The position numbers are program-made. From Escherichia coli (GTDB lineage: Bacteria > Pseudomonadota > Gammaproteobacteria > Enterobacterales > Enterobacteriaceae), in assembly GCF_013122565.1 (NCBI RefSeq), contig NZ_CP053258.1: a DNA stretch of 64,000 nucleotides; one strand, given 5' to 3'. Of this stretch, positions 5,701-13,463 are shown piece after piece (the first letter of the stretch is position 1; every line of letters begins with the position of its first letter).

Positions 5701-8700
5701 TGAAAACGGCGCGTATTCTGACCGTCTGCGTGGCGGTAATGTTGCTGTTGAGCGCATGGGGATTGTTCGATTTCTGGAACTGGCTGCAAAACGGCGCGGG
5801 GCAGAAAACCGTAGATATCCTGATCCGTATCGCACTCATTCTTTTCTTCTCGGCGGTTGGCTGGACAGTGCTCGCCAGTTTGATCGAAAACCGGCTGGCT
5901 TCGGATATTCATGGCCGCCCGCTACCCAGCGCCCGTACGCGTACCCTGCTGACGCTGTTCCGTAACGCGCTGGCGGTGATTATCAGTACCATCACCATCA
6001 TGATTGTGTTGTCGGAAATCGGCGTCAATATCGCGCCATTGCTGGCAGGTGCCGGGGCATTAGGTCTGGCTATCTCGTTTGGTTCGCAAACGCTGGTGAA
6101 AGATATTATCACCGGGGTATTTATTCAGTTTGAAAACGGCATGAACACTGGAGATTTGGTGACTATCGGGCCGTTGACCGGCACTGTGGAACGGATGTCG
6201 ATTCGCTCCGTGGGCGTGCGCCAGGATACCGGGGCGTACCACATCATTCCGTGGTCTTCGATTACCACCTTTGCCAACTTTGTCCGCGGCATTGGTTCGG
6301 TAGTGGCAAACTACGATGTTGATCGCCATGAAGATGCTGATAAAGCCAATCAGGCACTGAAAGATGCGGTAGCGGAATTAATGGAAAACGAAGAAATTCG
6401 CGGGCTGGTTATTGGTGAACCGAACTTTGCCGGGATTGTCGGCTTAAGCAATACCGCGTTTACACTGCGTGTTTCGTTCACCACGCTGCCACTCAAACAG
6501 TGGACGGTCCGCTTTGCCCTCGACAGCCAGGTGAAAAAACATTTCGACCTGGCAGGTGTTCGCGCGCCAGTGCAGACTTATCAGGTGCTGCCTGCTCCGG
6601 GCGCGACCCCGGCTGAACCGTTACCGCCTGGGGAGCCAACGCTTTAACGCTGGCGATTGACAAAACGGCGGCGCTGCTCGTCGTTCATAAAGGTCCAGGC
6701 AATAAAGCGACTCTGCTTTTGCCCCTGGGCCATCTCTTTTTTAACCACCTTCACCGCGCCCACGTCCGTCAGGGCACGATACAACGGCGGTAAGTTTTCA
6801 CCACGAGATACCAGTGAAGTAAACCACATCACACGCTTCGCGAAGCCTTTGCTCTCTTCAATCATCTTTTTGATAAAGGTGACTTCACCGCCTTCACACC
6901 ACAACTCCTGTTGCTGGCCACCAAAGTTCAGTGCATCGTCTTTGTTCAGCCCCAGGTTACGGCGTTTACGCTCACTACCTGCCCGCGCCGCAGCGGCGGA
7001 ATTGTGGAATGGCGGGTTACACAAGGTCGCGTCGTATTGCTCGTTTTTATGGATGATGCCGTTAAAAATCGCCCCACTCTCTTTTTGCCGACGCAGACGA
7101 ATGGCGCGATTAAGCCCCGGATTAGCACTGATGATCGCCTGCGCACTGCTTAACGCCTGGCTGCTGGTTTCACTACCGGTAAAACGCCAGCCATATTCAT
7201 GTACGCCAATCAGCGGATAAATACAGTTCGCACCAACGCCGATATCAAGAATGCTGGCATTCGCTGGAATTGTTCCGCTTGCTTCTGCCAGTAAATCGGC
7301 AAGGTGATGAATATAATCCGCCCGGCCCGGTACTGGCGGACAGAGAAAACCGTCCGGGATATCCCAGTTCGCTACGGCGTAAAAATGGGCCAGCAACGCC
7401 TTATTGAGCGCCTTCACCGCCAGCGGATTGGCAAAGTCTACGCTTTGCTCCCCGGCGGGTGTAAGCGTGAGGAATTGCCTGAGTTCAGGATTGACCTGAC
7501 AAAGCGTGGCGAGATCGTAGCGGCTGTGATGACGGTTGCGCGGATGCAACCCCGGTTTCTGGGCGGACATAGCATTCTCCTTTAAGCAGCGGCGTAAGAT
7601 ACCCGCATAACGCGACAGGGTAAATATCTGGCTGCGTTTATCATTCCCCAAAACCTTAACATGGCTATGGTTTATGGCAATTCATCATAAAAATCAGCAT
7701 TATGCATGTCATTGATTTGTCTTATTTTGTAAAAATATATCGTTCAAAAAATAAGCATATCTCTGTCAATTTTTTGCGTCATTTTCATCGCCCAAGCGAC
7801 CTACACTTATCAGGCACTACCCGTTGTATTTATGAGGATGTCATTATGAAAAAGTGCCTCACACTACTGATTGCCACCGTCCTGAGCGGAATCTCTCTCA
7901 CGGCTTATGCCGCGCAACCGATGAGTAACCTGGACAGCGGTCAGCTACGGCCCGCCGGTACCGTTTCGGCAACTGGCGCATCAAACCTAAGCGATCTGGA
8001 GGATAAACTGGCAGAAAAAGCGCGCGAGCAAGGCGCGAAAGGTTATGTCATTAATTCCGCAGGCGGAAATGACCAGATGTTCGGTACTGCAACCATCTAC
8101 AAATAACCCCACCAACGTAACTGCATTCGCCTCTGGATGCAGTTTTCGTCTGTTTTGTAATCAAAAAACATCAAATATGAACGCAATGTAAATAAATGTA
8201 TTTCTTTTTCGCACAATGGGTGATAGAAAATCGCGCCAAGTGATAATGCTTATCAAAATTATTATCACTTGCACGAGTACTATCACGAGATTAACAGTGG
8301 CATCGCATCCGCAGAGAGGCTTTCTCGTGGCAGTGAAAATTTCAACATATAAGAAAAAGTCACCTGCAAAATGGAAAACAATCGCAATTTCCCTGCCAGA
8401 CAATTTCATTCGCTCACGTTCTTTGCCGGTCTTTGTATTGGCATCACGCCTGTGGCTCAGGCACTCGCCGCCGAAGGGCAAACTAACGCGGATGACACGC
8501 TGGTTGTCGAAGCATCAACGCCTTCGCTTTATGCGCCACAACAATCTGCAGATCCGAAATTCTCGCGTCCGGTAGCGGATACTACCCGCACGATGACGGT
8601 GATTTCTGAACAAGTGATTAAAGATCAGGGCGCAACCAACCTTACCGATGCGCTCAAAAACGTCCCCGGCGTGGGTGCGTTTTTTGCGGGTGAGAACGGT

Positions 8701-11700: not shown

Positions 11701-13463
11701 CAGTTACGTTAACTACAACTGACGGGCTGTGTAGCGAGTATAATTTGTATTTTGCGTGGCATTCCGTGCCTTTAACGCTGTCGTGACTGCCACGCTGCAT
11801 AAAACAAGTCCATAAGTACAACAAATAAATGGTTTATCAGTATGTTAGATATCAATCAATTTATTTGAACAAGGCGGTCAATTCTCTTCGATTTTATCTC
11901 TCGAAAAAAAACGTGATACTCATCACATCGACGAAACAACGTCACTTATACAAAAATCACCTGCGAGAGATTAATTATGAAAACTATCAATACTGTTGTT
12001 GCTGCTATGGCTCTTTCAACTCTGTCATTTGGCGTGTTTGCCGCGGAACCGGTAACGGCATCCCAGGCACAGAACATGAATAAAATCGGCGTGGTTTCTG
12101 CCGATGGCGCATCCACCCTCGATGCCCTGGAAGCGAAACTGGCTGAGAAAGCGGCGGCAGCCGGTGCCAGTGGATACAGCATCACTTCTGCCACCAACAA
12201 CAATAAATTAAGCGGTACTGCGGTAATTTATAAGTAATTCGTAGGACGGATAAGGCGTTTACGCCGCATCCGGCAACAGATGCCTGATGCGACGCTACCG
12301 CGTCTTATCAGACCTACAAAATCCGAACCGTTGGCTGAATCAGGCGTTTACGCTACGTCCAGCACAAGTATTTCCCTGTCTGTTTGCCGACAGACGCATA
12401 TGCTCTAACCCTCATTGATCCTATGTTACCCTTGTTTGCCCGTCCGCCACTGGACGGGCTTTTTTTTAGCTGGCTAACTGCTGACAGAAAGCCTGCAACG
12501 TCTCTTCCTGCATACCAATCTGCCGCGCCGCATCACAAATGGCCTGCCAGCTTCCCGCATCCAATGGAATCCCCTGCTCCTGCCGTTCGCGACGCGTGTT
12601 CACTTCCCACTCGCCCGGGAGCAAAATCGGCTTATCGTCATCATGCGGCGAGGCTTTCACCCACTCGGCAAAGGCTTCGGTCTGCGCGCTACAATCCGGC
12701 GCGCCGAACAGCTCCGGATTGATGATGATGGTGGTCATGCAGTTAAGAATGGCATCGGGACTGGTTTGTAACGTTTCCTGATGCGTCGTTTTACCGCCGG
12801 AAAGCGCCCCACCAAGAATTTCACACATCGCTGCAAGGGCGTAGCCTTTATGTTCGGCAAAGGTCAACAGCGAACCCAACGGCGACTCCTGCATTACCGC
12901 CGGATTGGTCGTCGGCACGCCGTTAACGTCAATCAGGCAACCTGGCGGCACGGGGACGCCTTTATGCCAGGCGACGCGGGTTTTGCCAAATGCAATGGCG
13001 CTGGTGGCGTAATCAAGCAACAGCGGGAAATTATCTTTACGAGGGAAAACCACACAGAAGGGATTGGTGCCAAAGCGGCTGTCGCGACCGTGGAACGGCG
13101 CGACCATTGGAATACCGACCACGCTAACAAAGTGGATAGAGACAAACCCCGCCGCTGCACACTGCTCCGCCCAGTAACCGATACGGCCGATATGATGCGA
13201 GTTATGTAGCGCCACGGCAGCAATACCGTGCTGATGCGCTTTCTCAATCCCCAGCGCCATCGCTTCGTGTGCCGCGACCTGACCAAATGCGCGATCGCCA
13301 TCGAGCGTGACCGCCGCCCCCGCCTCTTTAACGATTTTAGCATGATGATTAATTTGCAGATGCCCCTGACTCCAGGAACGCACATAGCTTGGGATCATGC
13401 CAATACCATGTGAATCATGCCCTGCCAGGTTTGCCGCGATTAAATGGTCGGCAACTAATTTCG

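Follow-up and report, generated by a model that had tools for sequence, protein, structure and literature searches.

Two DUF1471 paralogs around the fiu-ybiX-ybiI genes of Escherichia coli: a plausible ancient local duplication giving mcbA and ybiJ

Two DUF1471 genes on either side of fiu-ybiX-ybiI

The genes mcbA and ybiJ of Escherichia coli encode two small proteins of the DUF1471 family and lie on either side of fiu, ybiX and ybiI, the first of which codes for a catecholate siderophore receptor. The locus was analysed in a stretch of 64,000 nucleotides (nt) of E. coli contig NZ_CP053258.1 (assembly GCF_013122565.1), hereafter the window. In a 98.8%-identical E. coli record, RefSeq annotates the genes in the order rlmF (− strand), mcbA, fiu, ybiX, ybiI and ybiJ (all on the + strand), followed by ybiE and hcxB (both on the − strand). 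Genes, order and lengths are all as in the E. coli K-12 locus of mcbA (ybiM, b0806) and ybiJ (b0802) in RefSeq and EcoCyc, from which the window shows no structural difference. Positions 7000-13000 were found at a coverage of at least 80% in 5416 of 5426 complete E. coli genomes, with a best identity of 98.8%, and the larger segment 4000-15000 is 98.4-98.8% identical in DNA to the closest of these genomes, which belong to O55:H7 strains. The McbA protein of the window equals that of Escherichia sp. E1V33 (L009), despite a DNA identity of about 94% between the two loci. An earlier note, made from the sequence of the window, had described two DUF1471 paralogs flanking fiu-ybiX-ybiI, and the open reading frames (ORFs), Pfam family PF07338, the NCBIfam models and the RefSeq annotation agree with that description (Table 1).

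From their sequences McbA and YbiJ are paralogs with certainty. The two proteins share 40 of 86 residues (47%) in an ungapped alignment that spans 86/86 positions (BLASTP with composition-based statistics, E=7e-16); hence the similarity is full-length and extends beyond the C-terminal motif to which, as the earlier note had allowed, it might have been confined. Both proteins score well above the cutoff of 27 bits of PF07338 (McbA 69.8 bits, YbiJ 64.8 bits), with profile positions 1-55 of 55 aligned to residues 34-86 in each of them. Among the sibling models of NCBIfam, the best one for each protein is its own equivalog model. McbA obtains 174.5 bits on NF040473 (cutoff 110), with the BhsA model as runner-up at 101.5 bits and the YbiJ model at 74.3 bits, and YbiJ obtains 173.1 bits on NF007611 (cutoff 110), with the BhsA model again as runner-up at 116.2 bits. 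YbiJ also passes the cutoff of 90 of the BhsA model, a sign of the closeness of the subfamilies. At the DNA level, a repeat finder returned a core of 60 nt, in register in both genes (7963-8022 and 12094-12153), that is 72% identical. The genes lie on the same strand with a start-to-start spacing of 4131 nt, and their overall nucleotide identity is 50%, falling to 31%, that is, to saturation, at third codon positions.

The DUF1471/YhcN/BhsA-McbA family (PF07338) has a signal peptide followed by an alpha+beta domain of about 60 residues with an end of the G-T-A-x-I-Y-K type, a plan that McbA and YbiJ would follow from their sequences. Both ORFs have the length of 86 aa given in the earlier note, and signal peptides, as it had also claimed, can be read from both sequences. 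The predicted peptides cover residues 1-22 of McbA (7846-7911), with cleavage between AYA and AQ, and residues 1-22 of YbiJ (11977-12042), with cleavage between VFA and AE; they share a basic n-region (MKK or MKT), a hydrophobic core and a site of A-x-A type at residues 20-22. A Sec signal in YbiJ has been reported (Sondervorst et al.). Matches of McbA and YbiJ to solved DUF1471 structures are weak at the sequence level (E=2.8e-5 and 9.2e-5 for 2NOC, 3e-4 and 4e-4 for 2MA4). McbA ends in GTATIYK and YbiJ in GTAVIYK, and it was from these near-identical ends that a local duplication had been proposed in the earlier note. The ends are as described and a duplication is plausible, but the origin is not proven by them: the end GTAVIYK is common to BhsA and YbiJ, and close variants occur in YahO and YhcN. 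Judged from these sequences, the GTA(T/V)IYK tail is a hallmark of the family, unspecific to the McbA/YbiJ pair.

The family itself is small. An exhaustive profile search among 1.84 billion representatives returned 369 members at E<=0.001, and the named matches of the protein search are all from Enterobacterales, save one metagenome-assembled genome (MAG) labelled only 'Proteobacteria bacterium'. The set of E. coli K-12 comprises ten proteins: McbA, YbiJ, BhsA, YhcN, YahO, YjfN, BsmA, YjfY, RclB and the three-domain YdgH. Eletsky et al. (2014, PMC4092069) likewise describe a family restricted to Enterobacterales with about 10 E. coli paralogs and read adjacent pairs as expansion by duplication; the pairs cited in that discussion are yjfN/yjfO and yhcN/ycfR-like, with mcbA/ybiJ unnamed there. 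That YbiJ is a paralog of McbA has already been stated (Sondervorst et al. 2025, preprint). The pair is therefore already described and annotated, and both its paralogy and the expansion of the family by duplication are published.

Two unusual forms of YbiJ were encountered. In the variant P0001 (E. coli, 114 aa), a stretch of 28 residues inside the protein is duplicated in tandem and in frame, so that ASTLDALEAKLAEKAAAAGASGYSITS is repeated, and P0167 (K. quasipneumoniae, 135 aa) is an ORF fusing the N-terminus of YbiI to YbiJ, which suggests either a deletion inside ybiI or an over-extended gene call.

Table 1. Genes and sequence elements of the mcbA-ybiJ locus, with positions in the window
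Feature	Position	Strand	Basis
mcbA (ybiM) CDS, 86 aa, DUF1471 periplasmic protein	7846-8106	+	ORF; RefSeq annotation; Pfam PF07338 (E=2e-19); NCBIfam NF040473
mcbA intrinsic terminator: 10-bp hairpin (8119-8144), then UUUUCGUCUGUUUU	8119-8156	+	RNA fold; cross-genome conservation
Fur-box array overlapping the fiu promoter	8236-8272	+	Mismatch scan; promoter scan
fiu, TonB-dependent catecholate siderophore receptor, 760 aa	8371-10653	+	Pfam Plug and TonB_dep_Rec_b-barrel; RefSeq annotation
GC-rich hairpin with T-run in the fiu-ybiX gap, terminator- or attenuator-like	10661-10678	+	Terminator scan
ybiX, PKHD-type Fe(II)/2-oxoglutarate hydroxylase, 225 aa	10695-11372	+	Pfam 2OG-FeII_Oxy_3 and PKHD_C; RefSeq annotation
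ybiI promoter-like element, TTGAAC-16-TATATT	11376-11403	+	Promoter scan; cross-genus junction alignment
ybiI, DksA/TraR-type C4 zinc-finger protein, 88 aa	11446-11712	+	Pfam PF01258; synteny
CRP-type palindrome CGTGATACTCATCACA, 51-65 nt upstream of the ybiJ start	11912-11927	+	Motif search
ybiJ CDS, 86 aa, DUF1471 protein	11977-12237	+	ORF; annotation; Pfam PF07338 (E=7e-18); NCBIfam NF007611
Repeats of REP/BIME type in the ybiJ-hcxB spacer (context, outside the paralog pair)	12240-12364		Rfam naRNA4; direct repeat D3; stable fold
Hairpin GCCCGTCC...GGACGGGC with T8, likely ybiJ terminator, bidirectional with convergent hcxB	12438-12467	+	Terminator scan; fold

Variants of the locus across genera

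The surroundings of the two paralogs were compared by a Fiu-based scan of one genome per species, which gave 44 loci, and in other loci taken from contigs encoding YbiJ. The order rlmF, mcbA, fiu-ybiX-ybiI, ybiJ and, further on, ybiB is kept in Escherichia, Citrobacter, Raoultella, Leclercia, Silvania, Pseudocitrobacter vendiensis and a Klebsiella MAG. Among the loci of the Fiu scan, mcbA is missing from the Klebsiella oxytoca group, from P. faecalis and from one further Enterobacteriaceae genome, and in Pantoea, as at one locus of Enterobacter ludwigii, fiu-ybiX occupies another site that has no DUF1471 gene beside it. In E. ludwigii, Lelliottia amnigena and Trabulsiella odontotermitis, the rlmF-ybiB interval contains a DUF1471 gene, ybiI and ybiJ, in some cases preceded by a flavin reductase gene, and fiu-ybiX is missing there. 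Salmonella and one metagenomic Enterobacterales contig have neither mcbA nor fiu-ybiX between rlmF and ybiB, leaving ybiI and ybiJ, again with or without the flavin reductase gene. The absence of McbA from Salmonella is noted in the family description of Eletsky et al. (PMC4092069) and is borne out at the Salmonella locus studied here.

The upstream DUF1471 genes of the genera devoid of fiu-ybiX are McbA orthologs: their products are 56-65% identical to McbA of the window and score 127-132 bits on a McbA hidden Markov model (HMM), against 66-70 bits on the YbiJ HMM. In these genera (E. ludwigii, Lelliottia and Trabulsiella) mcbA lies about 0.7 kb upstream of ybiJ, in the same orientation, with ybiI alone between them. 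The position of ybiI directly upstream of ybiJ is common to nearly all complete loci examined; three gave no match. In alignments of the junctions, genomes with and without fiu-ybiX alike retain the ybiI promoter (TTGAyTG...CATAkT) and the hairpin of the mcbA terminator. Between these two elements, ybiX and fiu, the latter with its promoter and Fur box, make up a clean indel of about 3.2 kb (window ~8157-11375 versus 7326-7448 in L052, 5324-5450 in L056 and 5311-5448 in L057). From these synteny variants and junction alignments, the locus has ybiI-ybiJ as its conserved core, mcbA as an optional, fast-evolving neighbour and fiu-ybiX as a separate cassette.

The pair formed by a TonB receptor and a PKHD hydroxylase, similar to PiuA-PiuC, stays together as a two-gene unit, also at unrelated loci of Pantoea and E. 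ludwigii; a co-conserved receptor/hydroxylase pair is among the subjects discussed for Caulobacter in a preprint (10.1101/2024.10.16.618771). The copy at the unrelated E. ludwigii locus (L029) is more divergent, with identities of 79% and 73%. For the cassette in situ, identities of Fiu are 89% in Citrobacter and 82-85% in Klebsiella, Raoultella and Leclercia, in parallel with those of the flanking YbiO and RlmF. Because the Fiu identities track those of YbiO and RlmF, vertical inheritance with repeated loss would be somewhat more likely than repeated gain.

Across genera McbA is 48-73% identical to the protein of the window whereas YbiJ is 71-85% identical, and thus McbA evolves about twice as fast as YbiJ. 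The saturation at third codon positions, together with the presence of both genes in the same positions in most loci of eight or more genera, indicates that the duplication is old.

A flavin reductase gene (204 aa, PF01613) lies between rlmF and mcbA, fiu or ybiI in the Klebsiella oxytoca group, Raoultella, Trabulsiella and others (L017 6096-6710, L019 5667-6281, L045 5065-5679, L055 4754-5368 and L056 4283-4897). As this gene is absent from the window, the rlmF-ybiB interval can be regarded as a small variable region. The distant family representatives P0290, P0271 and P0372 are on contigs of 0.8-3.4 kb whose context is uninformative.

Separate control elements of mcbA, fiu, ybiI and ybiJ

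The genes mcbA, fiu, ybiI and ybiJ are equipped with control elements of their own. The intrinsic terminator that closes mcbA folds with -15.9 kcal/mol (z=-4.3), and 0 of 200 shuffled sequences were equally stable. The promoter-like element in front of ybiI is homologous to the one found right after the mcbA terminator where fiu-ybiX is missing. The hairpin downstream of ybiJ folds with -17.6 kcal/mol (z=-4.6). The paralogs mcbA and ybiJ are separate transcription units.

The best match to the Fur consensus GATAATGATAATCATTATC in the entire window, 15/19 at 8242-8260, falls at the fiu promoter and has neighbours in a 6-nt phase at 8236, 8248 and 8254. The predicted promoter consists of a -35 element GTGATA at 8220 and a -10 element GATAAT at 8242-8247, the latter covered by the Fur-box matches. 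A search with the Fur consensus allowing up to 3 mismatches gave no match in the window, and the site emerged from a full mismatch scan. In published work fiu is assigned to the core Fur regulon, and the list of the Fur-1 iModulon names fiu, ybiX and ybiI, with mcbA and ybiJ unmentioned in the paper (PMC10164565). Similarly, a study of extraintestinal pathogenic E. coli (ExPEC) in serum lists ybiX, fiu and ybiI and neither mcbA nor ybiJ. No Fur-box-like site with up to 6 mismatches was present in the ybiI-ybiJ spacer of any genus checked, and upstream of mcbA a single weak match (13/19) was found, nothing comparable to the fiu array. A Fur box upstream of ybiI in the genomes lacking fiu-ybiX, which would be a sign of a deletion that left the fiu promoter on ybiI, was searched for and none was found. 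Within the cassette, a GC-rich hairpin begins 8 nt past the fiu stop codon, ahead of ybiX, and could be, from its sequence, an internal attenuator of the fiu-ybiX unit.

Upstream of ybiJ, CGTGATACTCATCACA is the sole exact occurrence of GTGATNNNNATCAC (GTGAT-N4-ATCAC) in the window. In 32 loci from many genera, the extended motif GTGATNNNNATCACATC is present in a single copy per locus, and in every case this copy lies upstream of ybiJ. Sites of CRP type are also found for bhsA (TGTGATCCAGATCACA, L002 8991-9007, upstream of K-12 bhsA) and for yhcN (TGTGATATGGGTCACG), and no palindrome of this type was present in the upstream region of mcbA. CRP sites for ybiJ and yhcN have been reported (PMC12871828, PMC3105977). 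An operator for the TetR-type repressor ComR shared by ybiJ and bhsA was considered and rejected, as the palindrome is the CRP consensus TGTGA-N6-TCACA; a different palindrome, ATCGATCG, is a better fit to the ComR site that has been reported some 60 bp upstream of comC.

Published data give the two paralogs different regulators and conditions. The mcbA gene is repressed by McbR (YncC), and its derepression leads to overproduction of colanic acid, with a link to biofilm; ybiJ is, with bhsA and yhcN, among the top acid-induced genes in a paper in which mcbA is unmentioned. The divergent regulation of mcbA and ybiJ deduced from the locus agrees with these observations on acid induction and McbR repression. 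For the family in general, an implication in envelope stress responses and biofilm is among the points treated by Eletsky et al. (PMC4092069). A YbiJ-msfGFP fusion showed faint, envelope-enriched localisation in 1 of 4 nutrient conditions, and an AlphaFold model of YbiJ was superposed on 4EVU and RcsF, and an RcsF-like fold was proposed (Sondervorst et al., preprint). Such a modelled fold suggests a role in envelope stress sensing.

Regarding the remaining spacers, those between mcbA and fiu (8107-8370) and between ybiI and ybiJ (11713-11976) each measure exactly 264 nt and have no sequence similarity, and their equal lengths are taken as a coincidence. The spacer between ybiJ and hcxB contains two repeats of repetitive extragenic palindromic (REP) type, of the kind that builds bacterial interspersed mosaic elements (BIMEs), with a match to Rfam naRNA4 (RF02564) at 12244-12314 (72.7 bits). 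These repeats account for the about 11 extra places per E. coli genome obtained with megablast. The ybiE ORF (19 codons, 12340-12399, − strand) is intact and overlaps the second repeat.

Origin of the mcbA-ybiJ pair

Within the family in E. coli, the pair and bhsA (ycfR/comC) form the closest trio. McbA, YbiJ and BhsA are pairwise 43-47% identical and nearly equidistant, and YhcN and YbiJ are 45% identical. BhsA belongs to the same length class as the two paralogs and shares with YbiJ the GTAVIYK end and with its gene the CRP-consensus palindrome; unlike mcbA and ybiJ, bhsA sits at a different locus, beside the TetR repressor gene comR, and according to the literature its repressor is ComR, while copper and multiple stresses induce it. 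The relationships within this trio were analysed in bootstrapped neighbour-joining (NJ) trees of 87 and of 130 sequences with about 64 alignable columns. Syntenic loci supplied McbA and YbiJ sequences, 28 distinct ones of each, and the protein search those of BhsA and YhcN. Each subfamily was monophyletic (88-99% bootstrap), and the trio was recovered with 63-64%. McbA and YbiJ were grouped in the point trees, and a grouping of McbA with BhsA received 14-15%. Profile comparison by hhalign showed a slight preference in the same direction (McbA-YbiJ 137.8, YbiJ-BhsA 128.1, McbA-BhsA 115.5), and the McbA HMM built from orthologs scored YbiJ at 84.5 bits and BhsA at 78.9. In these cross-HMM scores YbiJ appears as central and slowly evolving, and McbA as a long branch. 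About 64 alignable columns are too few to settle the branching of the trio.

The reading that we favour, with a probability of about 0.6, is that mcbA and ybiJ come from an ancient local duplication and that their bracketing of fiu-ybiX is accidental. The best support for it is position. Near-adjacency, shared orientation and the existence of other local clusters of the family are explained most economically by an ancient local duplication, its local character being plausible. One such cluster is yjfN-bsmA(yjfO)-yjfY, two of whose genes are adjacent and the third 8 kb off, with the unrelated ula operon between; its members are far more diverged from one another (22-30% identity) than McbA and YbiJ are. 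The ancestral neighbourhood would have contained ybiI-ybiJ, and a duplication at the rlmF-ybiB locus would have placed the new copy just upstream of ybiI, earlier than the divergence of the core Enterobacteriaceae genera. This copy, mcbA, would then have evolved about twice as fast and come under different regulation. The Fur-controlled fiu-ybiX cassette, with the terminator of mcbA on one side and the promoter of ybiI on the other, stands apart from this history. The products are anciently diverged DUF1471 paralogs, probably small Sec-exported periplasmic alpha+beta proteins that take part in the response to envelope stress and in biofilm.

Several results weigh against this reading. The bootstrap of the McbA-YbiJ group is 56% with the mature region and 30% with the full-length proteins, and the addition of 43 intact representatives (in the tree of 130 sequences) left the grouping unsettled, with mostly unlabelled sequences as the sister of McbA. 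BhsA is the second-best match for McbA and for YbiJ, both by BLAST bit score and with the NCBIfam models. The upstream regions of mcbA and ybiJ (160 nt) align no better than dinucleotide shuffles (p 0.1-0.5). Moreover, in Enterobacter and related genera the near-adjacency may have arisen secondarily, after a loss of fiu-ybiX. The sequence signal alone neither proves nor disproves a local origin.

A different origin would be that mcbA stems from the lineage of bhsA, or of some other dispersed family member, and was inserted independently beside rlmF, its proximity to ybiJ being a coincidence. The second place of BhsA holds by bit score for every McbA ortholog, the converse being likewise true, and on McbA the BhsA model of NCBIfam beats the YbiJ model (101.5 versus 74.3 bits); the rlmF-ybiB interval is, besides, one where genes are gained and lost, such as the flavin reductase gene, hcxB and fiu-ybiX, and Salmonella, the K. 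oxytoca group and Pseudocitrobacter faecalis are without mcbA. However, the apparent closeness of McbA to slow-evolving members is inflated by the long branch of McbA and by the breadth of the BhsA equivalog model, and the McbA HMM and hhalign place YbiJ before BhsA, as do the point trees, in which the bootstrap of the alternative pairing is low. The shared orientation of mcbA and ybiJ, at most about 1 kb apart in the genomes lacking fiu, also speaks against an independent insertion, which we consider rather unlikely, though a serious competitor. A resemblance of McbA and YbiJ by chance or convergence, confined to the signal peptide and the short C-terminal motif, deserves mention since short, alanine-rich proteins may show inflated similarity; against a full-length ungapped alignment assessed with composition-based statistics, curated family models passed by both proteins and a DNA core in register, its probability is negligible.

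The bracket could also be functional, the paralogs and fiu-ybiX-ybiI constituting an iron-responsive envelope module, for instance through co-regulation by Fur or through help in catecholate uptake. Its order and orientation are conserved in many genera, ybiI between the paralogs belongs to the Fur-1 iModulon, and the iron-responsive fhuF and nrdHI are co-induced with ybiJ under severe acid stress according to the literature. Nevertheless, there is no Fur box with up to 6 mismatches upstream of ybiJ and just the weak one upstream of mcbA, which is closed by its own terminator, and neither gene is named in the Fur-regulon literature searched (the Fur-1 iModulon paper and the ExPEC serum study). 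The two parts of the bracket also occur one without the other: no DUF1471 gene lies beside fiu-ybiX in Pantoea or at the second of the fiu loci of E. ludwigii, and the paralogs have no fiu-ybiX in Enterobacter, Lelliottia and Trabulsiella. A functional module is thus very improbable. Regarding the claim of the earlier note that the paralogs bracket a Fur-regulated receptor operon, the Fur-box array at the fiu promoter does lie between them, but the bracket carries no functional meaning, given the separate terminator and promoter and the genera without fiu. Since fiu-ybiX is a separate cassette, missing from the locus in Enterobacter, Lelliottia, Trabulsiella and Salmonella, the bracketing of iron genes in E. 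coli is best seen as an accident of the history of the locus.

A local duplication may be extended to a more detailed and clearly more speculative scenario, one that we regard as improbable in full. Here mcbA would be a copy of ybiJ placed upstream of ybiI that lost the CRP site, gained control by McbR and evolved about twice as fast, with the fiu-ybiX cassette separate, present at its site in some genera and absent in others, and the locus would offer a snapshot of the birth and rewiring of a paralog. If this were true, the cassette, where present, would draw ybiI, once independent, into the iron stimulon via read-through. If fiu-ybiX had been gained repeatedly at one junction rather than lost, a preferred integration site would be indicated.

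The genes, their paralogy, the control by Fur and the CRP site are already in the literature or in the annotation, and the comparative result is a modest refinement of the history of the locus. The gene order of E. coli calls for caution, as it should not be read as a functional module joining iron and DUF1471 genes.

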